Source: a virus (taxonomy: Duplodnaviria > Caudoviricetes). From it: a stretch of DNA of 59,185 bases. Where the stretch lies: positions 1 through 59,185 of IMG/VR virus record IMGVR_UViG_3300044513_001810. The stretch is one strand, 5' to 3'. Shown one piece after another: positions 1 to 20,900 of this stretch (the stretch's first letter is position 1; each line of letters opens with the position of its first letter). The notes under the pieces were generated by a model. The model did no database searches. It saw nothing but the letters and a program-made list of their open reading frames with translations, and was not told the origin of the DNA. A program made the position numbers and the translations under genes.

Positions 1-242
1 GTTTGGATTGGCTCATATGTGTATTCTGATGTAGCGCAAGAGGCTACGAGTAAGGCTACAGCAATAAATGCAATAACCTTTTTCATGATGTTAAGTTAAT
101 GTAAAGCGGCCGGACTACCAAATTATCCGGCTACACGAGCGTTGAACTGCTCCCACAGTTTGTCGCCTTCCTTGCCTAAACTGTAGGCTACTTTACGAAT
201 TTCATCATATCTATGTGACCAGCGATTGTATACCCGGCTGTC
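1..242 (+). repeat. Terminal direct repeat, left copy
   Basis: Matches 58944-59185 except at positions 110 (C/T) and 115 (C/A). Confidence 0.97.
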
Positions 243-455
243 GTCAGAGTATCTATATGTATAGTCAAATCCTCTGATGAGGTCTAAAAACTCATCAACA
301 GTCGCGTCTTCGTATACATCAATCCAGGTACGGCGATACAGATACTTGTTGATTACCTCGTAATACTCTTCGGTAGTTATCTTATCTGTAGTAAAATCTT
401 TCTGTGCTTGCTCCACCTCTGGTATTAGGCAGATTCTTTTGGTTGGTCTACTCAT
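123..455 (-). CDS. Hypothetical protein (110 aa, MSRPTKR...)
   Basis: ORF; start moved to the ATG at 455, right after the upstream small ORF stop. Confidence 0.75.
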   Translation of the reverse strand: MSRPTKRICLIPEVEQAQKDFTTDKITTEEYYEVINKYLYRRTWIDVYEDATVDEFLDLIRGFDYTYRYSDDSRVYNRWSHRYDEIRKVAYSLGKEGDKLWEQFNARVAG

Positions 456-456
456 A

Positions 457-558
457 TTATTTGTCTTTATCGTGGCCCCATTTGAATACTGTGTATATAA
501 AGTAGAAGCCCACAATAGCCCACATTATCATGAAGGCCAGTAACGGAAAGTCTATCAT
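457..558 (-). CDS. Small membrane peptide (33 aa, MIDFPLLAFMIMWAIVGFYFIYTVFKWGHDKDK)
   Basis: Hand-translated; starts at the ATGA overlap of the junction repeat; single hydrophobic segment; not in the ORF track. Confidence 0.6.
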   Translation of the reverse strand: MIDFPLLAFMIMWAIVGFYFIYTVFKWGHDKDK

Positions 559-782
559 TTCTCTTTGGTGTTAAAGGTTTCTTCAAATTCTGCTTTGATG
601 TAGTTCTCATTGAATGCATCGTGGTTAAACCTAAATGCAAACTCACACATCGTCTCTTTCTCTTTCTCAAGTAGTGATTCTGCTAACTCCACTATCTGTT
701 CAAGCCACATAAATGGTTGCACATCTTCATCTTCTTGTCTCTTTCTGATTACAGAAATCAACTCTTGCATTGGTGTTTTCAT
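555..782 (-). CDS. Hypothetical protein, MKTPMQELI family
   Basis: Paralogue of 988-1200; ends in FNTKEK, encoded by the junction repeat. Confidence 0.8.
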   Translation of the reverse strand: MKTPMQELISVIRKRQEDEDVQPFMWLEQIVELAESLLEKEKETMCEFAFRFNHDAFNENYIKAEFEETFNTKEK

Positions 783-985
783 TTCTCTTCATTGTTAAGT
801 GCTTCATACCGATTCTCCAGCTCATCAATCTCCCACAATGGAACTTCCTTAATATCCTCCACATTAGCGTAGTATGGAAGTGCCTTGTATCCCATTGGCT
901 CAACTATGATTGTGCCTTCTCGGTTGTTGTCCTTTTGGAACTCGCTAACTTCAGCAAGTACCCAAACCAATGTTCCTTGTTTCAT
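779..985 (-). CDS. Hypothetical protein
   Basis: ORF starting at a junction-repeat ATG and ATGA-coupled to the downstream gene. Confidence 0.75.
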   Translation of the reverse strand: MKQGTLVWVLAEVSEFQKDNNREGTIIVEPMGYKALPYYANVEDIKEVPLWEIDELENRYEALNNEEK

Positions 986-987
986 TT

Positions 988-1200
988 CTATTTGGTGTTA
1001 AATTGTTTGTCGTACCATTTAGGAATCTCCGAAAGCGGTTCATCTCCGAATTTATAGGCGAAGTCAACCATTGCTTCTTTCTCTTTCTCAAGCATTGCTT
1101 GTTCATTTTCAAGCAACATATCTATTGCGAATGCCAATCCGTACTCGTCCTTTTTTGACGATTTCAATTGGTCAATCAACTCTTGCATCGGTGTTTTCAT
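988..1200 (-). CDS. Hypothetical protein, MKTPMQELI family
   Basis: Paralogue of 555-782 (MKTPMQELI...LEKEKE.M..FA..F...FNTK). Confidence 0.8.
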   Translation of the reverse strand: MKTPMQELIDQLKSSKKDEYGLAFAIDMLLENEQAMLEKEKEAMVDFAYKFGDEPLSEIPKWYDKQFNTK

Positions 1201-1212
1201 TTCTCTTTGGTG

Positions 1213-1809
1213 TTAAAGGTTTCTATTTCTTGCCCTCTGTTTTAGTTGAGACTTGGTGTTCAGTTTAATTGATTCACCAGTCAACGCAAGGACGATTGCT
1301 TTTAGTGTGGATAGCGTTGCCTTGTCTGTCAATTCAACATCTCTAATAGTGGTTCTATGTACGCCAGACAATTCAGCAAGTTCCTCTTGTGTTAACCCAC
1401 ACGCTAACCTTCTCCTTCTTATTGTTCTACCAGCAAAAGAAAGTGCTGATGACAATTTATGGAAAGACAAATCATCTTCTTCTGTGTATGGGTCATTTAC
1501 AATGGCTGGTAGACTTTTTTTGTTTAATAGGTCTGGATTTCTACTTGCGTATTTATTAATCCATTTAACCTCAAGTGCTGGTAGGTCGTTAACATCTTCA
1601 GCCTCATCAAGCAACACTACATTAACTTGAATCCAATTGTCATTCATATCCTTAATCCAATCATTAACCTCCTTTGAGTGGCTATTACCAAGCAAATGGT
1701 TTAATGGACGAGACTTACCTACAGACGACTTGCCTACATAATAAACCAAATCGTTTCTACTGTCGGCAAGACCATATATAATGTTTTTCATATTTGTGTC
1801 TGTAGTCAT
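1213..1809 (-). CDS. GIY-YIG-like nuclease domain fused to an XRE-type HTH
   Basis: N-terminal IIYGL...YYVGKS; C-terminal IRRRRLACGLTQEELAELSGVHRTTIRDVE. Confidence 0.75.
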   Translation of the reverse strand: MTTDTNMKNIIYGLADSRNDLVYYVGKSSVGKSRPLNHLLGNSHSKEVNDWIKDMNDNWIQVNVVLLDEAEDVNDLPALEVKWINKYASRNPDLLNKKSLPAIVNDPYTEEDDLSFHKLSSALSFAGRTIRRRRLACGLTQEELAELSGVHRTTIRDVELTDKATLSTLKAIVLALTGESIKLNTKSQLKQRARNRNL

Positions 1810-1924
1810 TTGATTTCTTCTTTTAGTTGTTTAACGCTGTGTGCCTTTAATGGTGGGACTTCCCATCATCTCATTTGATTTATTGCGTATTGCGATTTGA
1901 GATATTTTACACTTTGAGTGCTTT

Positions 1925-2137
1925 TCATTTTACACTTTGTACACTTCGGTGTAAGTTTTCTATTTCACAATCTGGATAGGTGCAGTTGTTGTTTAGTCTG
2001 CAACTTTCACCTTCTCTTTTGATGTGCTTACACTTTTCTGTTTTCTCAAGCGTGTCCTTCAGTATCACATTCCAAGCCCACTTGTCCTTGTCAGCGTTCC
2101 AAAGTTTCTCATACATCTCCAGTAGTATCTCTCTCAT
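1925..2137 (-). CDS. Hypothetical protein, Cys-rich C-terminus
   Basis: Starts at a junction-repeat ATG; CKH...C...C...C. Confidence 0.65.
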   Translation of the reverse strand: MREILLEMYEKLWNADKDKWAWNVILKDTLEKTEKCKHIKREGESCRLNNNCTYPDCEIENLHRSVQSVK

Positions 2138-2304
2138 TTCTCTTTGGTGTTAAAGGTTTTGTCAGGTTATAACCCGACTCAACTCGATTTCCGTGAGGTT
2201 ATACCCTTACTTTTTTCATTTCTCTTTATGATTAGTAGTATCGTAATATATGTAAAATACTACTGCGCCATAAAACAAAAGGCATAAGGCAAAAGTCAAG
2301 GTGT

Positions 2305-2451
2305 TCATATAAATCCGTTTTTAAAATAATTCTGTAGAGTCTTGGTGGTGATTCCCAGTGCATCCGCAGCCTCTTGCTGGGTAGCGTATCTCTTTAGCGC
2401 AATCTTTATGTAGCGCATTTTTGCTCGGTGCAAGTTCAAATCCTCCTTCAT
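2305..2451 (-). CDS. Fis-like HTH protein (48 aa)
   Basis: IKIALKRYATQQEAADALGITTKTLQNY fits an HTH_8/Fis pattern; ATG lies just downstream of a promoter motif. Confidence 0.65.
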   Translation of the reverse strand: MKEDLNLHRAKMRYIKIALKRYATQQEAADALGITTKTLQNYFKNGFI

Positions 2452-2455
2452 ATAG

Positions 2456-2488
2456 GCTAATATAGTAATTATATGTAACTTATGCAAA
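2456..2488 (-). promoter_or_regulatory. Bacteroidota-type promoter, repeated motif copy 1
   Basis: Minus strand TTTG-N20-TATATTAG; shares a 21 bp core with 3159-3179 and 58041-58061. Confidence 0.6.
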
Positions 2489-2989
2489 TAAAAGCAAAGG
2501 AAATAACTTGTCGTTGGTAATCTCGTACAATGGAGCCTCAATCTTCAGTTCCGTACCATCGTCACGGGTACGCACACTCCCAGCCTCAAAGAAATCTCCA
2601 TCTCGCAAAAGGCGTAGTTTAGTCGTAAATCCACACAGCCACAATATGCCAGTGCGTTTATTTATAGAACAGAATATCAGAACATCACACGGTAGGTCTT
2701 TCTGGTAGCCTACAAAGTTGTTGGCATAATGTGGTTTGGGGTCTACACTACGCGTCATCGTCTTTACATCTATACGCGTATTGTCGTGCAGTATATCATA
2801 CCCACCGTCAAATCCTGGCGTGAACGAGTATTCATAACCGAGTGCATGGCGCACCATGTTTTCGCCAATCACTCCGGCATATTGTTGTTCTTTGGTTCCG
2901 TTAAAAGAATGACGCTTGCCCATGTCGTTTTCATTAACGAACTCCCAGGCTTTGCGCTTTAGGTCTTCCGGTATACGCTTACTCTGCAT
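2480..2989 (-). CDS. Putative PD-(D/E)xK nuclease-fold protein
   Basis: GE...GFDGGYD...IDVKT motif arrangement. Confidence 0.6.
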   Translation of the reverse strand: MQSKRIPEDLKRKAWEFVNENDMGKRHSFNGTKEQQYAGVIGENMVRHALGYEYSFTPGFDGGYDILHDNTRIDVKTMTRSVDPKPHYANNFVGYQKDLPCDVLIFCSINKRTGILWLCGFTTKLRLLRDGDFFEAGSVRTRDDGTELKIEAPLYEITNDKLFPLLLFA

Positions 2990-3140
2990 CGTAACCTACG
3001 CTCAATGTCCATTTTAACCAGACAAACTCAACTGACTTCCTCGTCACTTGCTTATCGTACAAAACGAACACGGTAGGAATCAAGCAGAACGCACCATACA
3101 AATACAGAACCTGGATGGTAAATGTTACTCCTTTCATCAT
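2979..3140 (-). CDS. Small hypothetical protein (53 aa, MMKGVTFTIQVLYLYGAFCLIPTVFV...)
   Basis: Hand-translated ORF between a promoter motif and the next gene. Confidence 0.55.
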   Translation of the reverse strand: MMKGVTFTIQVLYLYGAFCLIPTVFVLYDKQVTRKSVEFVWLKWTLSVGYDAE

Positions 3141-3155
3141 CGTTTAATTATCGTA

Positions 3156-3186
3156 GTGAATATAGTAATTATTTGTAACAATCAAA
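3156..3186 (-). promoter_or_regulatory. Promoter, repeated motif copy 2
   Basis: Minus strand TTTG...GTTACAAATAATTACTATATTCA. Confidence 0.5.
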
Positions 3187-3202
3187 ACACTAATGTAAAG
3201 AT

Positions 3203-3229
3203 AAAAAGAAAACCCCACCGAAGTGGGGC
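3203..3229 (-). terminator. Rho-independent terminator
   Basis: Minus strand CCCCAC-TTCG-GTGGGG followed by TTTTCTTTTT. Confidence 0.85.
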
Positions 3230-3285
3230 TTCTAACCAAACCAAAATCACACTAATGCCGTATGTGTGACCCGATAAAGATAATA

Positions 3286-3723
3286 CTATACCCAAGTTTT
3301 CACAACAGAATAGTCATATTCTTCTTTCATCGCTTTCTTGTAGTGTCGTTCTACATGCATCACGATATAGTCGCCCAGCGGTGTAAGCACATATTTACTG
3401 GCTTTACCGATTTTAGACTTCGGAATAATCTTCTCTACTACACCTTGCTTCTCCAACTTGTGTATATACTGGTAGATAATTTGTTTACTGTAGTCAACCC
3501 GTATAAAACGCAACAGATGGGACAGTTCAGCAGCCATAAAGTGTGGGAGCGGATGGTCTTCAACTTCTCTTTGTAAGATGATTTCATGAGCGCACAAGAC
3601 AACAGTTACCAATTCTCTACGCATACGCAAGTCGTCAAACGCAAAATTATCGGCGGCCTCTTTTATTGCCTTGTGAAACATGAGATACTCTCTTACCATT
3701 ACATCTTCCGCATTTCCCGTCAC
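3286..3723 (-). CDS. Winged-helix (MarR-like) DNA-binding protein
   Basis: SKQIIYQYIHKLEKQGVVEK...YVLTPLG winged-helix pattern. Confidence 0.6.
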   Translation of the reverse strand: MTGNAEDVMVREYLMFHKAIKEAADNFAFDDLRMRRELVTVVLCAHEIILQREVEDHPLPHFMAAELSHLLRFIRVDYSKQIIYQYIHKLEKQGVVEKIIPKSKIGKASKYVLTPLGDYIVMHVERHYKKAMKEEYDYSVVKTWV

Positions 3724-3871
3724 ACTCTTTAGGCTCTACTTCGCACCATCGCACTTGCAGTCTTTCCCTTGACAAACGCATTTTTCTTTTGCAGAGGCTG
3801 GGTGGTTACTAAAATAATCAAAATATCTGGCATTGTGGTGACGCTTCACCGTTTCAATCACTCTCTGTGAA

Positions 3872-3973
3872 TTAACTGCCACACGCTTCACAGTCTTCGG
3901 GGTTTAGAATGTTGCATGTGGGTTGTTCAGTTGTTTCAAGGTCTTCTACCCAGGAGTTGAAATCATCAGCCAT
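3872..3973 (-). CDS. 33-aa acidic peptide ending CNILNPEDCEACGS, resembling the ribonucleotide reductase alpha C-terminal tail
   Basis: Hand-translated MADDFNSWVEDLETTEQPTCNILNPEDCEACGS; not in the ORF track. Confidence 0.7.
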   Translation of the reverse strand: MADDFNSWVEDLETTEQPTCNILNPEDCEACGS

Positions 3974-4047
3974 ACCTTCAGATTTTAAAAAATTAGACAA
4001 AAAAAGCATGCCGTGGCATGCCGAAATAAAATACTACCAGTGGTTAA

Positions 4048-4338
4048 TTAATGACGGATGAATGCCGGTGTGTGTGGTCCGGCGTATGCGTTGACTACAT
4101 TGTACTCCATATGCTCAATAGCATCGTCAATACTAACATCTTCATCTTCATCGCCGCCCATAGTTCGGTATAGGACATCTACACATTTCCAATAGTCGTA
4201 AGCAAGGTAGGGTACTTCATTTACTCTATGAACCACACCCAGAAAAGCCTCGTCAAAACCATCGGCAATCAGTATAGGGTACTCGTCCCCATACATCTCG
4301 TATACAATATCCTCAATATCCTCTCTCGTCATTGTCAT
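4048..4338 (-). CDS. Conserved phage hypothetical protein
   Basis: ADGFDEAFLG...AYD...EHMEYNV..AYAG..TP motif familiar from phage proteins; start moved to MTMTRED. Confidence 0.7.
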   Translation of the reverse strand: MTMTREDIEDIVYEMYGDEYPILIADGFDEAFLGVVHRVNEVPYLAYDYWKCVDVLYRTMGGDEDEDVSIDDAIEHMEYNVVNAYAGPHTPAFIRH

Positions 4339-4383
4339 AACCTTAATCAAAAATATAAAAAGCAATCGGTGAACGAGCAATCA

Positions 4384-4860
4384 TTAGAGGTTTATTTTGC
4401 GGATAAATCCGGCATCCTCCTCCAGGGTTTTGTATAGTGGTGGTATCCAGCCTTTTGCATTGTCATCTCCAAATCCGGAGTTTCCAACAACCTTAAAATC
4501 GCCGGTTTCGCAGAATTTGCACAGCACCTCGCGTGTGTAAACATACGCGGTATTCTCCTCCTCCTTCTTCATGATGTAGACATAGTAGTCTGCCTTACTC
4601 ATATATATACCGGATGGGGCCTTCTTTTTTGTATTATGAAATTCTATGTAGAGATTGGGCTGGTTTGGCGTTTTTCTGCGCTCCGCCCACCAGTAGGCTT
4701 TGCTGTCGTACTTAACCTCAAAGGTTAGTTCGCGCTCCTCACTGTTGGCCTTGATGTCCCAGTCGTAAAACCGCATATCCGGCGCATAGGTGACAGACCA
4801 TCCTCTACCCTCCAGGTAGTTGGCCCATAGTTGTTCGCCTATTTTGCCGGACATATTCAT
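4384..4860 (-). CDS. Putative PD-(D/E)xK endonuclease
   Basis: GKIGE...YDWD...FEVKYD...NLYIE...SGI..SKAD. Confidence 0.65.
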   Translation of the reverse strand: MNMSGKIGEQLWANYLEGRGWSVTYAPDMRFYDWDIKANSEERELTFEVKYDSKAYWWAERRKTPNQPNLYIEFHNTKKKAPSGIYMSKADYYVYIMKKEEENTAYVYTREVLCKFCETGDFKVVGNSGFGDDNAKGWIPPLYKTLEEDAGFIRKINL

Positions 4861-4872
4861 GCCGGCGGTATG

Positions 4873-5496
4873 CTATTCAAATTGTGACAGTGCGCTCTCA
4901 TCTAATACAGCCGTTAGGTCGCGTTGGTGCATGGTGTAAAACACCTCGCCCTCCACCTCATTCTCAAACTTTGAGTTTTTGGTGAACAACACATACTCGC
5001 CCACGGCTACATCAAGGGTCGGCTGGTCCTTTTCGGGGATGCCAATATGCCTCAATTTACCAATGTCCCAAGAAGTATTTTGCTTATATGCTTCCGGTAC
5101 GATGAAACTCCCAAAACGGGACTCCTTCTCTACCGGCTCTACAAATACCCAGCCGCCATTCATATGTAATACCCCATCTCGCTTATATGCGAAGATGTTG
5201 AAATACTCTACCTGGTAGTACTCCTTACCCTCATGCCACACCAGGTTATCCGGCGCAATAGTCAGATAGTGGAAATACACCTCGTCACCGACCTCCAACT
5301 CCATCTCCAATGTAGCATTGGCATAATGGCTTGGTGTCAGTAACCCAGGAACGGCCTCCACGATACCCTTAATAGATACATGGTGGGTCGGATTGTAGGA
5401 GGTGTCCAGGTAAAGTACCTTTCCCCCTTGAATTTCAATCTGGTTGTTATACTTTTGTGGTGCGCTGATAAGAACTATATCGCGAGCAGTCTTCAT
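4873..5496 (-). CDS. GroES-like co-chaperonin with two tandem GroES-like units
   Basis: LEVGDEVYF and VFVEP...IVPE...VAVGEYVLF...EVEGE motifs. Confidence 0.7.
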   Translation of the reverse strand: MKTARDIVLISAPQKYNNQIEIQGGKVLYLDTSYNPTHHVSIKGIVEAVPGLLTPSHYANATLEMELEVGDEVYFHYLTIAPDNLVWHEGKEYYQVEYFNIFAYKRDGVLHMNGGWVFVEPVEKESRFGSFIVPEAYKQNTSWDIGKLRHIGIPEKDQPTLDVAVGEYVLFTKNSKFENEVEGEVFYTMHQRDLTAVLDESALSQFE

Positions 5497-5757
5497 GTGG
5501 TTGCTTTTGTTGGTCCACTAATATATAATTTATTTATTAACCATTGGTCCAAAACGCTTGATTCTTTGAATTTTTTTTTCTAACTTCGCTATAGCCTATT
5601 AAGGCAATGTAGTTCTTCGGGCAAGCCCAAACAACATACCATTAGGTTTAAAAAAAACATAACTACCCGTCAAATTGTTAGTAACTACAAACAATTAGCC
5701 GTTTAGGTTATGCCGGACGAAAGTTAGGTGACGGGATTTTCAATATGGGCGAACTGT

Positions 5758-5784
5758 ATCCACTCCATCCGGGTGGATTTTTTT
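5758..5784 (+). terminator. Putative terminator
   Basis: ATCCACTC-catc-CGGGTGGAT hairpin followed by a T-tract. Confidence 0.55.
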
Positions 5785-6453
5785 ATACCCAATTGGCATC
5801 TATAGGCCCTTACCATCACACCCCTCTTACCACTCCGTTACCCCGTTCCGGGGAGGGCCATCTGTACCCGTAATTTTCTGGAGGACATATAGATACGGTG
5901 AGGGGGTAATACATATGTGTTGGTGCTGCTCCGTCCAGGAGGAAGTCAAAACCTGGAACCGGGTGGGGGTACATTTACGACATCACATATCGCATACCCA
6001 TGGATAGGGGACCCCCCACCCCCACAATGAGGAACTGGGGAAACCTTTTTGTCTACGCGAAGGCGTAGCAATTCCCTACACCCAGGACCACTTATCCCCA
6101 CCCCTCCACACCAGGGGGGAAAACCTTGACATGGTACACGCATGTGAATGATTAAATAATACGCGCGAGGTGGTCGGCGCATGAGCCGGAAGAGGTATGC
6201 TAATCGGCTCACTGGTTTACACTTTGAGGCCATTCTATTTTACACTTTGACGGACCGGTATGCGTTCCCTGGTACGCACCCTTCCCTTCGCCCTTTATAT
6301 GTACGCGCGCGCGCCTGGCGCACAGCGTTGTTGATAAGACCATGCGACAAATCACTGCACAAGTAAATTTTTTTTTCACTCTGCACACCGCATGAACACT
6401 GGGGTTCACGACAATCACCACCACCTCAACATAAATTTTTTTGTTGATAAGTG

Positions 6454-6483
6454 TTGACAATACGAAAACTATTCGTAGTATTG
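6454..6483 (+). promoter_or_regulatory. Early promoter (Bacteroidota sigma-type)
   Basis: TTG-N19-TAGTATTG matches the -33 TTG / -7 TAnnTTTG consensus with one mismatch. Confidence 0.7.
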
Positions 6484-6503
6484 TGATGTCGGAACGCGAC
6501 AAC

Positions 6504-6514
6504 GCTCTTTCACA
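6504..6514 (+). promoter_or_regulatory. boxA-like antitermination element
   Basis: GCTCTTTCACA versus boxA GCTCTTTAACA, about 20 nt downstream of the -7 box. Confidence 0.5.
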
Positions 6515-6516
6515 TT

Positions 6517-6630
6517 TCGGTTAACCCTCCCACGAGAACCAGTCCCCCGGTGCTGATGGTGTAAGCCCATGAACCCGGACGAAGTGAGTCACATTGCACA
6601 AGGCGATGTGCCGTCCCCGAAGTTAACCGA
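6517..6630 (+). ncRNA. Structured leader RNA of unknown class
   Basis: Closing stem TCGGTTAAC/GTTAACCGA; internal hairpins ATGG-TGTAAGC-CCAT and CACATTGC/GCGATGTG. Confidence 0.45.
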
Positions 6631-6650
6631 TACAGCAGATAGGTGATACC

Positions 6651-6709
6651 GCCACACTTGATGTGTACCATGTACGACATCGCAGAGGGTTCGCGACCCT
6701 CGTGTGGCT
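6651..6709 (+). ncRNA. tRNA-like element lacking a D-arm
   Basis: 7 bp acceptor GCCACAC/GTGTGGC, 5 bp T-stem GAGGG/CCCTC with TTCGCGA loop, and one internal hairpin GATGTGTAC/GTACGACATC. Confidence 0.65.
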
Positions 6710-6728
6710 CTAACCAATTTCAATTATC

Positions 6729-7064
6729 ATGAAATCAATCAATCCAACTGAAGATTACTTCAACCTTCACCGCAACGATGCAACCATCCTACGAGCCAGT
6801 GATGACTTCCGCAACGACCTCGGTCAGCGCATTACATTCTTCGAAGACCCAACACTTGGTGAGGATGCCCCAGTATGGGTTGCATTCCCCGATGACAAAG
6901 TCGCCTTCCGTTCAGACTTCTTCGACACCGAAGACATGACCGGAAAAATCCACAACATCATGACACCAGCCGAGGCTATCAAGTTAGGCTTGGATGGTAG
7001 CAGTGATTTGGATTATGTACCACGCTATGTGGACAGCAAGTTCTTCCTCAAGTTCGAGGAGTAG
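6729..7064 (+). CDS. Early hypothetical protein
   Basis: First ORF after the early promoter; acidic. Confidence 0.8.
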   Translation: MKSINPTEDYFNLHRNDATILRASDDFRNDLGQRITFFEDPTLGEDAPVWVAFPDDKVAFRSDFFDTEDMTGKIHNIMTPAEAIKLGLDGSSDLDYVPRYVDSKFFLKFEE

Positions 7065-7069
7065 TTCCC

Positions 7070-7125
7070 AGCACACTGATGAGGCCATGGGAGGCCGAAA
7101 CCGGACTACACATCCGGTATGTGTT
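7070..7125 (+). ncRNA. Hammerhead ribozyme, type I (HH1)
   Basis: Stem I AGCACA/TGTGTT, CTGATGA core, stem II GGCC/GGCC, GAAA, stem III CCGGA/TCCGG; GUA cleavage after 7119. Confidence 0.92.
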
Positions 7126-7160
7126 TAACCGGTCGCACTGCGACCACAATCTTATGTATC

Positions 7161-7364
7161 ATGCGTTTCATTCCAGCAACCGAAGACCAATTGTTTTCTC
7201 TATCATGTGTAAGCCGTAGAGGTGGTAGCCGTACCACTGCCGGTGCAAACTTCCAAGCCAAAGAGCGAGGCATCACTACCAAGGTCCGCAAGGCCACCCT
7301 TGAAATCAAGGAGAAGGTAGATGCCCAGTTCAGTAACACACGCCTCGTGTATGTGTGTGCATAG
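7161..7364 (+). CDS. Small basic hypothetical protein (67 aa) between HH1 and HH2
   Basis: ATG at 7161 after an AT-rich leader; HH2 begins 3 nt after the stop. Confidence 0.7.
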   Translation: MRFIPATEDQLFSLSCVSRRGGSRTTAGANFQAKERGITTKVRKATLEIKEKVDAQFSNTRLVYVCA

Positions 7365-7366
7365 CC

Positions 7367-7424
7367 AACACTCTGATGATGGACAAGGCAGTCCGAAACA
7401 TCCTCTACGGAGGGTGTCAGTGTT
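7367..7424 (+). ncRNA. Hammerhead ribozyme, type I (HH2)
   Basis: Stem I AACACT/AGTGTT, CTGATGA(T), stem II GGAC/GTCC, GAAA, stem III CATCCTC-TACG-GAGGGTG; GUC cleavage after 7418. Confidence 0.95.
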
Positions 7425-7447
7425 TAACAATTTCAACTACAACTATC

Positions 7448-7573
7448 ATGACTGATTTAGCAATCTCAACCCACGAAGCAGTACTATGTATGACTATCGG
7501 CCCAGCCGCAGTATGTGTATTCTCTTTCGTTACTTCTCTTATCCACTCAAAGATTCAAGAGCGTAACTCTTAA
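7448..7573 (+). CDS. Small hydrophobic protein (41 aa, MTDLAIST...) between HH2 and HH3
   Basis: ATG after an A-rich leader; one hydrophobic segment; stop lies just before HH3. Confidence 0.6.
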   Translation: MTDLAISTHEAVLCMTIGPAAVCVFSFVTSLIHSKIQERNS

Positions 7574-7577
7574 TGCT

Positions 7578-7635
7578 AACACTCTGATGATGGCCAAGCA
7601 TGGCCGAAACCCGGTTTACGGACCGGGTCAGTGTT
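7578..7635 (+). ncRNA. Hammerhead ribozyme, type I (HH3)
   Basis: Stem I AACACT/AGTGTT, CTGATGA(T), stem II GGCCA/TGGCC, GAAA, stem III CCCGGTT-TACG-GACCGGG; GUC cleavage after 7629. Confidence 0.95.
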
Positions 7636-7655
7636 TAACTAAAGTCTTAATTACC

Positions 7656-7835
7656 ATGACTGATTTACAAAAGGCTCAAGCCTTCTTTAGAATGAATGGT
7701 GTAGGTGCGGCTATTGACGAAGTCTACCTATACATAGAAGCCCATGGCTTTGAAGTGCAAGTATCTCAAGCAGAGATAGAGTTAAGAGCGGAATTGTACG
7801 ATGAGCAATTCAGCAATGTCAATGAAAATAAATAA
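7656..7835 (+). CDS. Small hypothetical protein (59 aa, MTDLQKAQ...)
   Basis: Starts ATGACTGATTTA like the gene at 7448; follows HH3. Confidence 0.7.
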   Translation: MTDLQKAQAFFRMNGVGAAIDEVYLYIEAHGFEVQVSQAEIELRAELYDEQFSNVNENK

Positions 7836-7841
7836 TGCCGT

Positions 7842-8312
7842 ATGAAAAATTTAGAAGAAAGCCGTGTGTACTACTTTGATGTACTGCACACAAGAGATGG
7901 GTACGACATCTACTGGTTGTACTCAAGAACTGATGCCGACTACAAGTGGGTCAACGGAACAAGGTATCCAACCAACAACATAGACCCGGACGAATTGTAT
8001 GTCAACGAATACGCGTTCTTTGAGGCTTGTGAGGACATCGTCAAGCAAGGCAAAAGGTTTATCAACTACGCCGTCAATGAAGAGGATATAAAACTATGGG
8101 AGCAATCGCTTCACAAGTCTTACCCTTTCCAGGAGGGCGATACCTACTACACGATTGAAGATGGTGAGGTAGTGGAGTCTTGCTGGGATTTTGTCAGCGA
8201 AGATATCTACGATTACCAAGTAGAGAATGAGGAGGTGCAGTTGTACTTCCCTTACAAGGAGGATGCAGAGAAGCACCTCAATAGTATTAACCAAAACAAG
8301 AATGCCGTATGA
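7842..8312 (+). CDS. Hypothetical protein
   Basis: Acidic ORF preceded by TGCCGT. Confidence 0.75.
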   Translation: MKNLEESRVYYFDVLHTRDGYDIYWLYSRTDADYKWVNGTRYPTNNIDPDELYVNEYAFFEACEDIVKQGKRFINYAVNEEDIKLWEQSLHKSYPFQEGDTYYTIEDGEVVESCWDFVSEDIYDYQVENEEVQLYFPYKEDAEKHLNSINQNKNAV

Positions 8313-8527
8313 TTAATGTAGAAAACATCATCAAGTACGAAAGTGGTGAGATGAGCCTCAAGGAGATGGTTCTATTCTTCGCCAAGTTGATTAAGAGTGG
8401 CGAAGCATGGTCACTCCAGGGACACTATGGCCGTAACGCCATGGCGATTATTGAAGCCGGTATCGTAGACCGAGAAGGCAATATTGACGAGGACATGTTG
8501 AACTATTACACTGAAGACAATGAGTGA
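8309..8527 (+). CDS. Conserved phage hypothetical protein
   Basis: YESGE...LIKSG.AWSLQGHYGR.A..IIEAG motif common in phage early genes. Confidence 0.8.
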   Translation: MINVENIIKYESGEMSLKEMVLFFAKLIKSGEAWSLQGHYGRNAMAIIEAGIVDREGNIDEDMLNYYTEDNE

Positions 8528-8867
8528 GCCAATTTTTGAAGATGGGTTTCAATTAGACCCGGAGTACATCGCATCTAAATTGCAGTACGAAGCCATCAAG
8601 AAAGCATACAGCCCGGAGTACTGGGGTGACCCTTACTATGCTTTCCTAATATCCCAGCACGAGCCATCGCTCGTGTTCGGGGTAGACGAAGCCGAACCCT
8701 ACGACACCGCGTGGGAGAAAGCCTTATCCCTGGCTAACAAGTGGGGAATGTGGGACCTTGAGAACCAGCAGAAAGGACCGCACTACACCGAAAGGTTATC
8801 CGGTTTGGATAGCCTCATGTTGTGGTTTGATTTGATTGATGAAGAAGGAAATATTAATTATAAATAA
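8520..8867 (+). CDS. Hypothetical protein
   Basis: ORF in the operon. Confidence 0.7.
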   Translation: MSEPIFEDGFQLDPEYIASKLQYEAIKKAYSPEYWGDPYYAFLISQHEPSLVFGVDEAEPYDTAWEKALSLANKWGMWDLENQQKGPHYTERLSGLDSLMLWFDLIDEEGNINYK

Positions 8868-8874
8868 GTGCCGT

Positions 8875-9036
8875 ATGACCAAATCGGATTTCATGTTCTT
8901 GTGTAATGAAGCAAGTGTTACACCGGAGGTAGCCCTGGAAAATAAGTTCGTTCGCCAGGTGCTAAAGGAAGACAAAGAAACGAACAGCGTTATTAATCAA
9001 ATCAAACTGGTGGCCGTATTGACCAGCCAGTTCTGA
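8875..9036 (+). CDS. Small hypothetical protein (MTKSDFMFLC...)
   Basis: ATG preceded by TGCCGT. Confidence 0.7.
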   Translation: MTKSDFMFLCNEASVTPEVALENKFVRQVLKEDKETNSVINQIKLVAVLTSQF

Positions 9037-9055
9037 TTGCAAACCATTATGCCGT

Positions 9056-9649
9056 ATGGATAGCAAATTAGCAAACCAAACAACATGTTCAGTATGCGAG
9101 GAGCATATTGAAGAACACGAGTACTACCAAGACAACCTCAAGACTGGAGAACCAGTTTGCGAGGGGTGTGTAGACCAATCTTACGCCTACCCCATGCTAA
9201 CCTCAACCACCTACCAGGATGGTGAGAAACAGCGTGTGATGTACAACGATACGCTGGGAGCGTTCATCGACTACGAGTACGGAGATATGTACGAAGAATC
9301 ACCGGACTACTCGCCAGTAGAAACCGCGAATTGGGTAAGCACCTCCGCATGGCGTGGGTACATGGGCTTCCAGCAGAAACCAGGATGGATATCATTGGAA
9401 AGCGGCTGGGCTACTGGTCGCTTTGACGATGTATCCTGGAAGCATGACTTCAATGATTTCATTGACAGCCTGGAGGCCGGAGAAGTAACCACGGACTTCC
9501 CGGTCGTGATTGTATCCGCACCGACATCGAATGTATTCAGCACAGCGATTGATGTGCTGGTCCGTAAGCGCGACTCCGAAGCGTTTTGGGAAATGTACCG
9601 CGAGAACTTTGGCCTCTCACCGGAGGACCTAACACGCTCGTTATCATGA
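9056..9649 (+). CDS. Hypothetical protein with N-terminal CxxC...CxxC zinc finger
   Basis: CSVC...CEGC; WVSTSAWRGY. Confidence 0.75.
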   Translation: MDSKLANQTTCSVCEEHIEEHEYYQDNLKTGEPVCEGCVDQSYAYPMLTSTTYQDGEKQRVMYNDTLGAFIDYEYGDMYEESPDYSPVETANWVSTSAWRGYMGFQQKPGWISLESGWATGRFDDVSWKHDFNDFIDSLEAGEVTTDFPVVIVSAPTSNVFSTAIDVLVRKRDSEAFWEMYRENFGLSPEDLTRSLS

Positions 9650-9798
9650 CCCGGTATTGGTGTGTGTACTCGGCATTCAATGCTGACACACTGCGGTGGG
9701 ATGTTATCAAAAAGCCCAATACATTAGTATTGCGTTCGTTTGATTGCAAAGAAGCCGCAAATTTGTATATTGCACAACTGAAATTCAAGAGTGCATGA
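9646..9798 (+). CDS. Small hypothetical protein
   Basis: ATGA-coupled to the upstream gene. Confidence 0.55.
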   Translation: MTRYWCVYSAFNADTLRWDVIKKPNTLVLRSFDCKEAANLYIAQLKFKSA

Positions 9799-9802
9799 CC
9801 AT

Positions 9803-9896
9803 AGGGTGGGTGCTGACAAGGTGTCCGGAGTGGTTTTAAGTATTGACACATACGATAGGTTAATAACACAAGAGGTTCGATTCCTCGCCCACCCTC
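9803..9896 (+). ncRNA. tRNA-like element
   Basis: Terminal stem AGGGTGGG/CCCACCCT, T-arm GAGG-TTCGATT-CCTC, internal GTGTC/GACAC; no canonical cloverleaf. Confidence 0.55.
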
Positions 9897-9940
9897 AAGC
9901 CCACACCGGAGGGCATGTTCCGGTAAACCAACAATGTACC

Positions 9941-10336
9941 ATGATAGATACAACCACCTTGAAGGCCCTCTTGAAACAAGAAACCTTCCTACACAAGTCT
10001 GACCAGGACTTCGCCCAAGCATTCCCCTATTTGTACACTGACCTTGTAGCACCGAACGACTACGAGGTGAGCGAACTGGATAAGTTCCCGGCAGACATCC
10101 AGGTGTTCCAGTCCATCGTTGAACTGATGGTCGCAGAGCATTTGACCTACTCCGGTCCGTACATCGCCAACAGAATCGCTCTGAATGTACGCGACCTTTC
10201 GGCGGATGCCTTCAGTGACCTTGTCCGGTTGACTGAACGCATACAAGAACGCCATATAAAGACCCTCAAGTACGAGGTGCTGAAGCAAAACCTGGAAGGT
10301 AAGGTTAGCCATGAACTTAACGAAGAAACGCCATGA
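9941..10336 (+). CDS. Hypothetical protein
   Basis: Start moved to the ATG at 9941, downstream of the tRNA-like element. Confidence 0.7.
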   Translation: MIDTTTLKALLKQETFLHKSDQDFAQAFPYLYTDLVAPNDYEVSELDKFPADIQVFQSIVELMVAEHLTYSGPYIANRIALNVRDLSADAFSDLVRLTERIQERHIKTLKYEVLKQNLEGKVSHELNEETP

Positions 10337-10662
10337 CAAATAGAGAAGAAGCCATCAAAGATATCTTCAAAGATTTACGCACCAGGATATCCGGCTTACC
10401 CCACTTGCGTAACACCTCGGCTGTGATGGAGGTCAAGGCTCTACAAATCATCTTGGAAGAACTGGAGTCAGCGGTACGCACACACCTTGTCATGGACGAT
10501 GAGGAGATTGTAGAAGGCGTAGTCACCCGGAGTATCAAGTTGTTCAAGAAGGAAGGTCAGTTAAACCCTCAAGCGGTGCGCGAGTTTCTGATATCAGAGC
10601 ATAAGATTGACATAAGTATAGCAGCACTCAAACAAAGAATAAACCACATATATGGAGATTAA
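10333..10662 (+). CDS. Hypothetical protein
   Basis: ATGA-coupled ORF. Confidence 0.7.
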   Translation: MTNREEAIKDIFKDLRTRISGLPHLRNTSAVMEVKALQIILEELESAVRTHLVMDDEEIVEGVVTRSIKLFKKEGQLNPQAVREFLISEHKIDISIAALKQRINHIYGD

Positions 10663-11065
10663 GATTACCGAAACCCGACCAGCGTCACCCTTCAACATTG
10701 ACCTCATGTTCAGTACAATTGAGGCCATCACCAGTACATCAAAGCACGAGATATTATCCTCGTCCAGGAAGCGCAAGTGTGTGGTAGCACGAACCTACTG
10801 CGCCATCCTACTACGAGATATGTTCGGGATGACCTACATGGAAACCGGTCGCATGTTGAACCGCAACCACGCATCTATTATTCACGCCGTCAGCGCACAT
10901 AAGACGGACATGAAGCACGACCCTACCTACTCCTGGAGATTCAAGGAGGTGGTAAACCTCATGGGCTTGAACCATTACACCCCATTACCCTACGAGGATG
11001 TTACGCAGAAGATATCCAAACACCTACGGAGAAAGAGCGTTATAAAGATTCTTGATACTAAATAG
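10652..11065 (+). CDS. DnaA C-terminal-like HTH protein
   Basis: RKRKCVVART...TYMETGRMLNRNHASIIHAV resembles Bac_DnaA_C. Confidence 0.75.
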   Translation: MEIKITETRPASPFNIDLMFSTIEAITSTSKHEILSSSRKRKCVVARTYCAILLRDMFGMTYMETGRMLNRNHASIIHAVSAHKTDMKHDPTYSWRFKEVVNLMGLNHYTPLPYEDVTQKISKHLRRKSVIKILDTK

Positions 11066-11086
11066 TAAATATTAGAAACTTATTGT

Positions 11087-11094
11087 TATATTTG
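11087..11094 (+). promoter_or_regulatory. -7 promoter box
   Basis: TATATTTG, an exact TAnnTTTG, 17 nt before the ATG at 11111. Confidence 0.6.
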
Positions 11095-11110
11095 ACAAAC
11101 TGAATGAACG

Positions 11111-11332
11111 ATGCGGATAGATGCTACAAAGGAACTTATCAAAATAAAGGGGGTAACCCTTTCGTTTGGTGAGGCCAAGGCATTCATCATCCAGCACTAC
11201 GCAGACCTATGTGGCCAACATGTTATTGGCTTCCATGGTAAGTGGGTAATAGACTGGATGTCCGTGTTCAAACATGCAGAAGAAACCAAAATTTTAAATG
11301 TCGTACAATGGCTGAAAACAAACAAGCGTTAG
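11111..11332 (+). CDS. Hypothetical protein
   Basis: ORF downstream of the promoter box. Confidence 0.6.
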   Translation: MRIDATKELIKIKGVTLSFGEAKAFIIQHYADLCGQHVIGFHGKWVIDWMSVFKHAEETKILNVVQWLKTNKR

Positions 11333-17922: not shown

Positions 17923-20900
17923 TTAGTATTCAAAGATATTGTTAACTGGTCGGTCAGTCAAAGATATAGGCCAAGTATCTGATGTGTTGCCGATGTTGTT
18001 CAGCATTTCCTGGGCTGCGTTTAGGTAATCCATTTCTTCCGCAGTCAATCCGGTGCTTGCATCCTTTGCCGACAAAGAGGTGACTATGTATTCCGCTTGT
18101 AGGTATACGGTAGCATACTTGGAAGCATCGCGAACAACTTGATTCAACACCTTCTTCAACACCTCTTGCTTCTTGTTGTCGCGCAAAGCATTCACATCAA
18201 CAATACCATCGTCAGCCACATCAATAAAGTCCTCAACAGCATCCTCCGCTATCTCAAGTAGTCCGCTTTCAGACAACTCAAGCATGCGGTCTTTAATCTT
18301 CGCGCCACGCAACACATAGAACTTATACTCTTGTATGTTGTCCATAGGAATTGCACGCTGGTACAAAGCAGATTCTGAATCATACACAACCATGCCTGGA
18401 TATGTAGGTGCTGGAACAAAGCAATTGTTCATGACAAATGTTTCGTAGAAATACTCCCTTGCATAGTCACTCACCTCGTTTTGAGGAGGCTCTGATATCA
18501 TTGGGAAGTAACGGAACGCGTCTGGCTGTACTGGGTCACCAAGCACATCCACCAATGGGTGGTTTGTTTCATTGGTAAACATCAACATCTCACGCTTCCA
18601 GTTGTCAAGTAATTCAAGACGCTGGTTCAACGGCATATTGTTATAGTCAAGAACCGAGCGGTTCAACTGCTGTACAAAGTTCGGAACTGTAAGGGTCTTC
18701 ATTGTTTGCTCTAACTTTTTGTAGATATAAGTGTCTTGCCATGAACCGTCTTGTCCAGCACTACTTCCAGACGAAGGAATACCCTTGAACAACTCTTGCA
18801 GTCCTTGAACGAATGTGTAGTCTGACAAGCCTTCAAAAAATGCCGTGACACCAATCGTTGCTTTAGTCATGAACTCATCTATTCCAGTCTGCTGGTCCAG
18901 TAATCCTTTCTCTTTGAAGTCTTCGTAATCAGTAATAGCACCCAGCGACATAAACACCAAGGAGAGTGGGGTTTCTCGGTACTCCATAACCTTTGGCTCA
19001 TCAAGCAATGGTCCTCCAGGATAAGCGCGGTAGAAGGTGATTGTATAGGGCTTCCATCTTCCGTCCATTTGTAACTGGTAATCTTTATATGGGTCACCAG
19101 TTCCCCCTCCAGTAATCTTCCATGCCGGTAGTTTCTCTTCATCGTCATCATCGCCAAACGATTTCATGCCAGCCAAGAAGAATCCCATTACGGAAGTTCC
19201 GAATACTGCGCGAGCGTATGCGCGGCGGCGAGAATCCTGGTTTCTGAACACCTGGTATCCAGGCTTTCCAAGACCTCGTGCAACAGCATCACCGGCTATG
19301 TTTACAAACTGCAAAGGCGTATAAGAATACAGTCGGTTACCAACATTTGCAAGCACCTTCAAGAATGGGATATACAGTGCCTTACCTATACGCATGGCTG
19401 AATCAGTCACTGCGCCAGTACCATCCTCTTCCAACGCGCGTATCATACCACGATATATCTTACCAAGCACACCGGCCGGCTCGTTCATGAATATGTTTTC
19501 AGTTGCTATGCGCTCCGCCTCTGCCTCTATATCATTTAGAGCCAAGTCTTGTTGCTCAAGTTCAGCGATTCGCAATCGGAATCCATTGGTGTGTGGCTTG
19601 TAGCCCTCGGCCACGGCTTGAGTTCCGTATTTCTCACGGCGCGCTTGGCGTTGCTCTACGGTTTCATCGCCCATGACAACAAGGAGAGCGTTCTCTTCAA
19701 GCAATGCTAACTCCTCCTGGCTCATAGCATCGGTGTCCCTACCTTGCGCCAGGCGGTGCATGATAACAGAAACCTCACCACCCTTGGACATACGGCGCAT
19801 GCCGATATCCACAGCAGAAAGCATGCGGCCGGGCAATTTCATGAACACCGGATTAAAAATCTGTAGTGCAGTGCGGCCTAATATCGTTTCAACAGCACGC
19901 CAAACTTTATTGTCGGCCGTACTTGTATAAGCATCATCACCCCACAACTGGTTGAACCCATACATCTCGTATAGAGGAACCTTGGTTGATTGCAATGCAA
20001 ACTTATCTGAACCGCTACGCTCGTAACGAATACCAGTCTTTAGAGTAAACCAGGCTTGGTCTAATGCCGGGAACACCGAGCGACCCACACCTCCCCAGTA
20101 CTTAAAGAAGGACATTGGAGATAGATTTGCCAATGGTAAAACAATACCTTCAGTCACAATACTGGCGATGTTAGCCGCAAAGTTTTTCAATTGCGTACCA
20201 AATCCAGACAGCATGTTAGAATAATACTGCGCCTCGGCAATGTCAAATAAAGAAACCCCTTCAAGTTTTGAAATCTTCTTGAGTAACTCAAACTCTGCCT
20301 TGACATACTCTTGCGTATTGTCTTGGTAAGATTTCATAATCTCCGCCAAGTTCTTTATCTCTTCAAGGTCTGCTTCAGTATATGGCACACCCTTCTTATC
20401 AAGTTTGCGCTTGATGTACGCCGCCATCGTTTCACCGCCGGCACGAGATATCAATGAGAACGCCTGGATGAACTGACCAGCACTGGTCGCGTCAAGTGCT
20501 AACTGCTCCACCATATCTCGCAACGCCTCACGGTAGTTTTCTGCAAGGGCAACTGCACCGTTAGAGTCTAATTCAAGAATCATGTCACTGATACGCTCAT
20601 TGACTTCATTAAACAATGCCACACGAACTGCACTAAAGCGGAACGACTGTGCGTTTGCACTTTGATTTTGACGGCCTTGCTTGGAGCGAGAAGGGATAGG
20701 CTCTGCCGAAGACGGAGCATCAACCCTTTTGTCCTGGAACAGTAGGTTGACACGGTCCGGCTCTACCAACATTCTGATAGCGGCTGGTAATCCAATCTCG
20801 TCTATCAACAACTTGGCTTCCGCACGAGTCATCTGATTAGAACGAGGGAAATAACTCTTTGTGTTTTCAGTAATCTCCTCGGTAGTTCTTTCGTCCGGTA

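Follow-up and report, generated by a model that had tools for sequence, protein, structure and literature searches.

Tandem type I hammerhead motifs between the small genes of a likely Bacteroidota phage

Clustered hammerhead ribozymes that flank phage genes have been known since 2011 (PMC3088659). In particular, triple arrays were described in prophages of Agrobacterium tumefaciens, where they flank ardA, of Clostridium scindens and of Azorhizobium caulinodans; in vitro, the clustered prophage hammerheads were cleaved at every site, and for the Agrobacterium triple cleavage was seen in E. coli as well (PMC3088659). Here, a comparable array is analysed in the virus record IMGVR_UViG_3300044513_001810 (the window, which is the whole record of 59,185 bases, with an estimated completeness of 95%). 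It is a compact case, with three predicted type I hammerheads (HH1 to HH3) in 570 nt of the plus strand, each fixed between the stop codon of one small gene and the start codon of the next.

As in the 2011 prophage arrays, hammerheads of the same orientation flank single genes or short blocks of variable identity, and the role proposed for those arrays, the cutting of long phage transcripts into gene-length mRNAs, is the one favoured for the window (PMC3088659). The 2011 arrays lay in prophages of sequenced bacteria, whereas the window is without an integrase or resolvase (no match to Phage_integrase or Resolvase in the 95%-complete record); residence in a prophage near an integrase characterises the setting of the published arrays and is not needed for the arrangement as such. 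Further, unlike the 2011 arrays, the sequence pattern of the window's family is found in one bacterial or archaeal contig compared with 16 viral and 107 metagenome stretches, and the window set differs in that all three copies are type I and two of them carry an extra U after A9. The spacing to the stop codon (2-5 nt) and to the ATG (~27 nt) and the cassette junctions described below are not among the features found in the available text of PMC3088659, whose supplementary alignments and gene maps may hold family members. Hammerheads at phage mosaic junctions were the subject of no relevant report among the literature matches listed. At the level of the family, the tight spacing, the cassette-exchange junctions and the non-detection by Rfam models are put forward as new leads.

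Synthetic ribozyme insulators, placed between a promoter and a gene, self-cleave and give the mRNA a defined 5′ end regardless of the upstream sequence. These insulators are engineered and keep the ribozyme body on the downstream mRNA, whereas at this locus nearly the whole ribozyme would remain on the upstream RNA. Among natural cases, HHphage of the haloviruses HF1/HF2 lies in the early region of a lytic virus, as appears to be the case here, its position being 13 nt upstream of the start codon of the gene that opens a polycistronic transcript, with a mapped 5′ end at most 3 nt from the cut; unlike the window set, HHphage is a lone ribozyme of an archaeal virus, its core is altered and salt-dependent, and it is not part of an intergenic array (PMC3088659). 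Type I hammerheads upstream of viral ORFs, with tandem pairs that enclose 186-399 nt, were reported in 2026 for RNA mycoviruses; that case concerns eukaryotic RNA viruses and cap-independent translation, and bacteria and DNA phages fall outside it in the text available (PMC13725137). According to a 2019 review, the purpose of bacterial and phage self-cleaving ribozymes is still undefined (PMC6765202). The relatives of the window supply natural variants in which cores are kept and stems are swapped, and sister phages that differ in the genes between the ribozymes; together they make two ideas testable with reporters, namely control of mRNA stability by the cut and control of translation by where the new 5′ end falls. 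Moreover, current Rfam models overlook this widespread family of phage hammerheads, so that such motifs go unannotated, for example the candidate in Flavobacterium phage elemoF.

Architecture and detection of the three motifs

The three complete type I motifs all lie on the plus strand, at 7070-7125, 7367-7424 and 7578-7635. Their parts are as follows.

HH1 with 5′ flank, 7065..7125, plus strand: GUA triplet, predicted cut after A7119; stem I 7070-7075/7120-7125, core CUGAUGA 7076-7082, stem II 7083-7086/7093-7096, GAA 7097-7099, stem III 7100-7105/7113-7118, A17 at 7119
HH2 with 5′ flank, 7365..7424, plus strand: GUC triplet, extra U after A9, predicted cut after C7418; stem I 7367-7372/7419-7424, core 7373-7379, extra U 7380, stem II 7381-7384/7391-7394, GAA 7395-7397, stem III 7398-7405/7410-7417, C17 at 7418
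HH3 with 5′ flank, 7574..7635, plus strand: GUC triplet, extra U, predicted cut after C7629; stem I 7578-7583/7630-7635, core 7584-7590, extra U 7591, stem II 7592-7596/7601-7605, GAA 7606-7608, stem III 7609-7616/7621-7628, C17 at 7629

All three copies have CUGAUGA, GAA and the A15.1-U16.1 closing pair, with A, C and C respectively as H17; in all three, stem I is open, carrying the 5′ and the 3′ end, and stems II and III are closed by loops. The type I hammerhead (RF00163, clan CL00010) has the same core, three helices, an open stem I and a cut after H17. Stem I is 6 bp long, stem II 4-5 bp and stem III 6 or 8 bp, and the 3′ strand of stem I reads AGUGUU in HH2 and HH3 and UGUGUU in HH1. The stop codons of the preceding genes (7062-7064, 7362-7364 and 7571-7573) leave gaps of 5, 2 and 4 nt to stem I, and the next ATGs (7161, 7448 and 7656) lie 41, 29 and 26 nt past the predicted cuts. 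A first-pass annotation, made from the letters of the sequence, had proposed three type I hammerheads with three stems each, a UACG loop common to HH2 and HH3, and new 5′ ends at 7120, 7419 and 7630 that delimit fragments of 299 and 211 nt; every motif was found at its proposed position, the UACG loops are seen on stem III, and the coordinates of the ends and fragments are correct. It had also placed the motifs 3-6 nt after a stop codon, which holds as to closeness, the measured gaps being slightly different.

Two features that depart from the consensus appear to be natural, tolerated variants, namely the extra U of HH2 and HH3 and the GUA triplet of HH1. One natural hammerhead is known to have an additional residue between A9 and G10.1, and with a U there the rate of a viroid ribozyme rose 3-4-fold (PMC3705267); GUA triplets are found among natural hammerheads and give good cleavage while transcription proceeds (PMC1636495). 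In our own scan, an extra base of whichever identity lies between A9 and stem II in 16 of 88 family hammerheads. As a separate observation, the bases 3′ of stem I (7126-7129, 7425-7428 and 7636-7639) read UAAC in the window and mostly YAAAC in unrelated phages, and are thus conserved; they show no pairing with loop II.

The pattern CTGATGA..GAAA..GTGTTTAAC matches the window three times, compared with zero matches in 100 shuffles, and the minimum-energy fold of each isolated motif is a three-way junction (z-scores of -1.5, -2.5 and -2.8). Two covariance models, R1 built from the three window copies and R3 built from 29 hammerheads of other viral contigs only, were run over the whole 59-kb window with filters off. 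Nothing beyond the three sites scored above 12.5 bits with R1. R3 gave 66.3 bits at HH3, 54.9 at HH2 and 47.9 at HH1 (E from 7e-16 to 1e-10), with a next best score of 11.7 bits; a model from other contigs thus picks exactly the three sites that had been named type I hammerheads, an identity that, at the level of sequence and predicted structure, is well supported.

A hammerhead family with a fixed layout and exchangeable genes

A first scan of viral contigs with CTGATGA..GAAA..GTGTTTAAC returned 85 stretches, and in 80 loci the best R1 score was 16.2 bits (E = 0.46), so that these were rejected as chance matches. A second pattern of 24 fixed bases (stem I, core, CGAAAC, and GUC with stem I) is found in 16 viral loci, where R1 finds 29 hammerheads, at least one per locus. 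These include tandem arrays of five (locus L104), four (L101 and L099), three (L105) and two (L106), and arrays of four are also present in L119 and L162. The 24-base pattern further occurs in 107 metagenome stretches, 80 of which were fetched, and in a single contig (2.9 kb, four copies) among 185,579 bacterial and archaeal genomes. Because a recognisable relative of the window's portal is encoded in only 3 of the 16 viral records of the second scan (5 of 18 searched, when two primase relatives of the window, G001 and G002, are included), the family crosses phage lineages.

Pairing is maintained across this family. Among the three window copies, 5 of 18 pairs have changed on both sides. Across 27 distinct members, 96.4% of cells are paired and 14 of the 18 pairs show compensatory changes, in an alignment that was fitted to the model and so favours the structure; none of 500 shuffles reaches this covariation, and slid controls are 28-38% paired. 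Together with the orthologues described below, these changes bear out the earlier claim of selection on RNA structure.

The layout was examined with our own type I scan of the window and 98 loci, which gave 88 distinct hammerheads, 79 of them with room on both sides, against 1,580 random positions on the same strands; contexts less than 80% similar were treated as distinct, which left 63 clusters, drawn from 40 loci. In 57 of 79 cases, a frame open for 30 codons or more ends -3 to 15 nt from stem I (random 14%; 46 of 63 clusters), an ATG-initiated ORF of at least 25 codons starts no more than 60 nt after the cut in 78 of 79 (random 42%), and the leader between cut and start codon measures 24-33 nt in 56 of 79 (random 7.3%; 42 of 63 clusters). 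Leaders are A-rich (45% A, 10% G), and some carry GGAG-like Shine-Dalgarno sites, from which it follows that the layout includes hosts that use such sequences. In L104, for example, each hammerhead begins either at the stop codon of a small ORF or immediately beyond it, and ~28 nt separate the cut from the start of the next ORF. Spacing between hammerheads is 207-450 nt in 22 of 33 family cases. In the window, the three plus-strand hammerheads enclose two small reading frames, ORF2 and ORF3, as in a clustered array. Overall, the module of stop codon, hammerhead, ~27-nt leader and ATG recurs, up to five times, in viral and marine metagenome contigs, and the gene-by-gene punctuation claimed by the first-pass annotation is both real in the window and, by the stop and leader counts, the norm across the family.

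Comparison with close relatives places boundaries of homology at the hammerheads. L143 is 96% identical to window positions 5000-7639 and unrelated beyond. L162 is 83% identical over 5000-7428, continues with a 438-codon ORF, matches the window again over 7571-7661, and then carries a homologue of a gene located at 8875-9020 in the window. L175 and L177 are homologous to the window from 7571 on, and G002, whose primase is 90% identical, begins at window position 9053, past the hammerhead region. Homology between relatives thus begins or ends at the edges of HH2 and HH3.

The ribozymes themselves have changed in a particular manner. HH1 is identical in L143 and L162. The HH2 orthologues in L162 and L121 keep the core, with C at the free position N7, and have a different yet paired stem III, and an L121 orthologue has GACCA/UGGUC in place of GGCCA/UGGCC in stem II with pairing retained. 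HH3 is a conserved island amid unrelated flanks in L143, L162 and L175. The cores of orthologous ribozymes are invariant save for N7 (U or C), and invariant cores with swapped paired stems are the pattern expected of a structure under selection. By this comparison, the hammerheads are also conserved islands between exchangeable genes.

A fourth hammerhead was observed in L162 (reverse complement 7376-7432; stem I GGUUAA/UUAACC), between homologues of the window genes at 8520-8867 and 9056-9649. At this site, the window has a small gene (8839/8875-9036), which follows HH3 in L162 and L175.

Proposed cleavage of the transcript and competing explanations

The operon features on which the proposed mechanism draws are listed here.

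6452..6483, plus strand: promoter-like site (GTTGACA, spacer, TAGTATTG)
6484..6728, plus strand: conserved non-coding leader of ~245 nt, ahead of the first ORF
6729..7064, plus strand: ORF1, 111 aa, stop TAG 7062-7064; conserved in L143 and L162
7161..7364, plus strand: ORF2, 67 aa, between HH1 and HH2; A at -3, no Shine-Dalgarno sequence
7448..7573, plus strand: ORF3, 41 aa, hydrophobic, between HH2 and HH3
7656..7835, plus strand: ORF4, 59 aa, first gene past the last hammerhead

A hammerhead cuts after H17 and leaves a 2′,3′-cyclic phosphate and a 5′-hydroxyl end. Transcription would start from ~6490 at the promoter-like site and run through the ~245-nt leader and ORF1. Each hammerhead would fold just past the stop codon of the preceding gene and cut itself after A7119, C7418 and C7629, so that the transcript would be cut three times while being made. 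The upstream RNA would retain the ribozyme body, because stem I is the open stem, as a structured 3′ end with a 2′,3′-cyclic phosphate, and the downstream RNA would begin with six ribozyme bases and a 5′-hydroxyl, 26-41 nt before the start codon. The predicted products are single-gene mRNAs of ~630, 299 and 211 nt and a long distal mRNA, with defined ends that are independent of the neighbouring sequence and through which stability and translation could be set gene by gene. Active cleavage with a role in separating the expression of the flanked genes is accordingly given a probability of about 0.7, judged from the sequences compared here.

Several results weigh against this reading. Rfam 15 gave no match at the gathering score over the whole window, and the Infernal check that the first-pass annotation had called for thus came out negative; the sole weak match paired part of HH1 with RF00008, a type III model, at 23.7 bits compared with a gathering score of 48.5. 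At E ≤ 0.1, the Rfam hammerhead models also found none of the related arrays in six other loci (~20 copies). Because these arrays go undetected too, the miss is read as a limit of the curated models: Rfam's hammerhead models overlook both the window and the six array loci, whereas the phage-built models used here detect them. When the motifs were folded with ~40-nt flanks, stems II and III persisted and stem I was part of the minimum-energy structure only in HH2, a calculation that is uninformative on co-transcriptional folding. In all three copies, 3-4 nt on the 5′ side of stem I can pair with loop II (UCCC/GGGA, with UCCC at 7066-7069 in HH1; GCC/GGC; and UGCU/AGCA, with UGCU at 7574-7577 in HH3). 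Such pairing is not enriched among 21 family members (mean of 2.71 compared with 2.58 for shuffled loops), a family-wide pseudoknot of loop II with either flank was rejected on the same ground, and in a strain variant (run X2, L175) a C at 7574 removes one loop II pair with no compensation. A tertiary contact, which fast cutting at the magnesium level of cells requires, is only suggested. The predicted accessibility of the start regions, cleaved minus uncleaved, changes by +0.04, +0.005 and -0.11 in the window, which is no gain; across the family, it is 0.627 cleaved versus 0.570 uncleaved (58 of 78 positive), a difference that may merely reflect the shorter RNA, and the result was set aside. 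Finally, as to synteny in related phages, a check named by the first-pass annotation, the hammerheads are kept in L143 and L162 and not in G001 (primase 71% identical), where R1, R2, Rfam and our own script found no hammerhead. In G001, the 10 kb upstream of the primase has no similarity to window 1-11240, the 8 kb upstream of the shared replication genes being unrelated; the arrays are thus dispensable for the lineage.

RNA data were limited to two metatranscriptome runs of one study, which gave short RNA contigs at a depth of 2-3. One contig ends at 7421 and another runs from ~7124-7128 to 7380, near the predicted ends. These were not counted as evidence, since RNA ends cannot be read from contigs and such libraries may contain DNA, and since contigs also break at strain divergence, which here falls at the hammerheads.

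The other explanations differ in what they take the modules to be for. The position of the cut may matter for translation, in that a free 5′-hydroxyl end ~27 nt before the start codon would be needed at internal genes, in place of translational coupling or a Shine-Dalgarno site. The tight leader length (24-33 nt in 56 of 79 cases, random 7.3%, and in 42 of 63 clusters) points this way, as do the window leaders, which show the Bacteroidota combination of A at -3 and no Shine-Dalgarno sequence, the packed or overlapping genes beyond HH3, which have no hammerhead, and the RNA mycoviruses, in which cleavage by a type I hammerhead in the 5′ UTR is described as essential for initiation (PMC13725137). 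Against it stand the GGAG-like sites in some family leaders, the 41-nt leader of HH1, the smallness of the accessibility gain over 78 cases and its absence in the window, and a literature search that found no bacterial precedent; on balance, a requirement of this kind is unlikely. Alternatively, the hammerhead-plus-leader modules of ~60-70 nt could act at the level of DNA, as homology for swaps of early-gene cassettes, with RNA cleavage secondary or inherited. Homology to L143, L162, L175 and L177 starts or stops at hammerheads, the fourth hammerhead of L162 lies where the window has the moved gene, HH2 and HH3 with their first four codons (MTDL) look like one copied module, and the family is present in phages with unrelated portals. 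However, sequence identity alone suffices for recombination, which leaves the compensatory stems with an invariant core unexplained and does not account for the constant distances to the stop and start codons; the same junctions would also be seen at any intergenic island that is conserved. We hold this role as a tentative possibility, somewhat on the doubtful side, and one that could coexist with RNA processing. Indeed, both a translational effect and cassette exchange may add to the separation of gene expression by cleavage. In the most ambitious form, the module would be a portable gene connector of marine phages, in which a 5′-hydroxyl end at a set distance from the start codon is required for internal initiation and the module also serves as homology for cassette exchange; this double role is speculative and distinctly unlikely, and if true its RNA side would parallel, in bacteria, the dependence of translation initiation on ribozymes in RNA mycoviruses.

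Two further explanations are far less probable than those above. The cut ends could be joined again, through the reverse hammerhead reaction or a host ligase of the RtcB type, into circular mRNAs of 299 and 211 nt or into transcripts that skip a cassette. RtcB ligates 5′-hydroxyl and 2′,3′-cyclic phosphate ends, so that the hammerhead products are ligation substrates. The stem I strands are nearly common to the copies, which would let the 5′ end of a fragment pair with its own 3′ ribozyme, and the 207-450-nt spacing is frequent (22 of 33), much as tandem hammerhead pairs of RNA viruses enclose 186-399 nt (PMC13725137). Yet the short spacing follows from small genes, the common stem I follows from duplication and from a search pattern that fixes stem I, and the RNA contigs, at very low depth, contain no joints; prophage arrays were examined for circular or spliced products, and none were found, as reported in the text available (PMC3088659). 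Ligation is accordingly thought very improbable. That the motifs are chance matches or decayed, inactive copies is more improbable still, close to negligible. The sub-threshold Rfam scores would agree with it, as would the lack of hammerheads in G001, the nearest relative with an upstream region, and the report that 4 of 18 consensus hammerheads were inactive in vitro (PMC3088659); it is opposed by the 0 of 100 shuffles with a match, the R3 E-values of 1e-10 to 7e-16, the invariant cores and compensating stems in orthologues at 83-96% identity, and the family-wide fixed placement.

Neighbouring features, phage and host

A promoter consensus scan found TTGACA-16-TAGTAT (10 of 12 matches) at 6452..6483, and both boxes are kept in L143 and L162 with a variable spacer. 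The site, whose TAGTATTG may be a Bacteroidota-type -7 box, is a putative operon promoter. The leader at 6484-6728 is near-invariant in L143 and L162, though L162 is 83% identical overall; a leader hairpin is altered on both sides of its stem (GAGGGU/ACCCUC to GAGAGU/ACUCUC), and the fold z-score of the leader is -1.94. Rfam had no match over 5480-6740. More broadly, 5500-6728 is a 1.2-kb space between divergent operons, with no credible ORF and very good conservation. Within it, 5560-5790 is ~97% identical in L162 and ends with a terminator-like hairpin (5758-5778) followed by seven T, which makes this stretch a candidate small RNA.

The flanked genes are largely without assigned function. 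For ORF1, the only family match is a weak one, to a PHROG without assigned function (E = 2.6e-5), and no relatives were found in viral contigs. ORF2 has homologues of 41-47% identity in four viral loci, one of which (L113) has two hammerheads downstream. ORF3 is present in L143 and L121, and in L162 a 438-aa ORF stands in its place. Searches of Pfam and PHROGs with the flanked genes of the window and its relatives gave no function other than a SprT-like domain in one L104 gene. Genes after ORF4 are packed or overlapping, with no further hammerhead. The labels of first transcript, early genes and host takeover that were attached to the flanked ORFs are inferred from their position. ORF3 and ORF4 both start with MTDL and have near-identical bases around the ATG (7447-7459 and 7655-7667), and HH2 and HH3 are each other's closest copies. 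The unit of duplication thus seems, from this likeness, to be hammerhead, leader and first four codons.

The window encodes a primase/helicase, an exonuclease, a portal and a large terminase. Its portal matched 87 GenBank phage records, all at below 60% identity (best 27.9%), of Flavobacterium (68), Cellulophaga (15), Tenacibaculum (2), Maribacter (1) and one unnamed organism; a nucleotide search of GenBank phages with the window and a search with the capsid candidate gave no match. The stretch is present in estuary and marine metagenomes (24 rows, 15 studies). Start codons in the hammerhead region have A at -3 and no Shine-Dalgarno sequence, which is a start-codon trait of Bacteroidota (PMC6847099) and fits a host from that phylum. 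The host is likely a Bacteroidota bacterium, and we infer from the portal relatives, start codons, missing integrase and sample sites that the window is a virulent marine phage.

The cultured distant relatives MW202828, phi38:1 and phi13:2 were searched and have no hammerhead, and Gundel_1 has only a weak match (19.6 bits). Flavobacterium phage elemoF has one candidate (NC_055853.1 16038-16110, minus strand, equal to L118 2539-2611; R2 score 35.3 bits), with a poor stem II and the tail CAAACU, flanked by gp65 and gp67 within an operon of small minus-strand genes. The candidate underlies the opposite-strand, 35-codon ORF gp66, which is probably an annotation miscall.

Other structured RNAs were observed in the related contigs. 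Where G001 has other sequence in place of the window's early genes, a 36-nt minihelix resembling an acceptor and T arm (L089 4570-4605) fits the tmRNA model at its ends (19.4 bits, E = 2e-4). L105 carries a tRNA gene on the minus strand (3255-3328, 69.4 bits) and a second, weak tRNA-like match (3582-3658). In the window itself, a giant ORF of 3,451 codons on the minus strand (17923-28278), with no Pfam family above cut-off, takes up ~17% of the genome and may encode a giant virion or injected protein.

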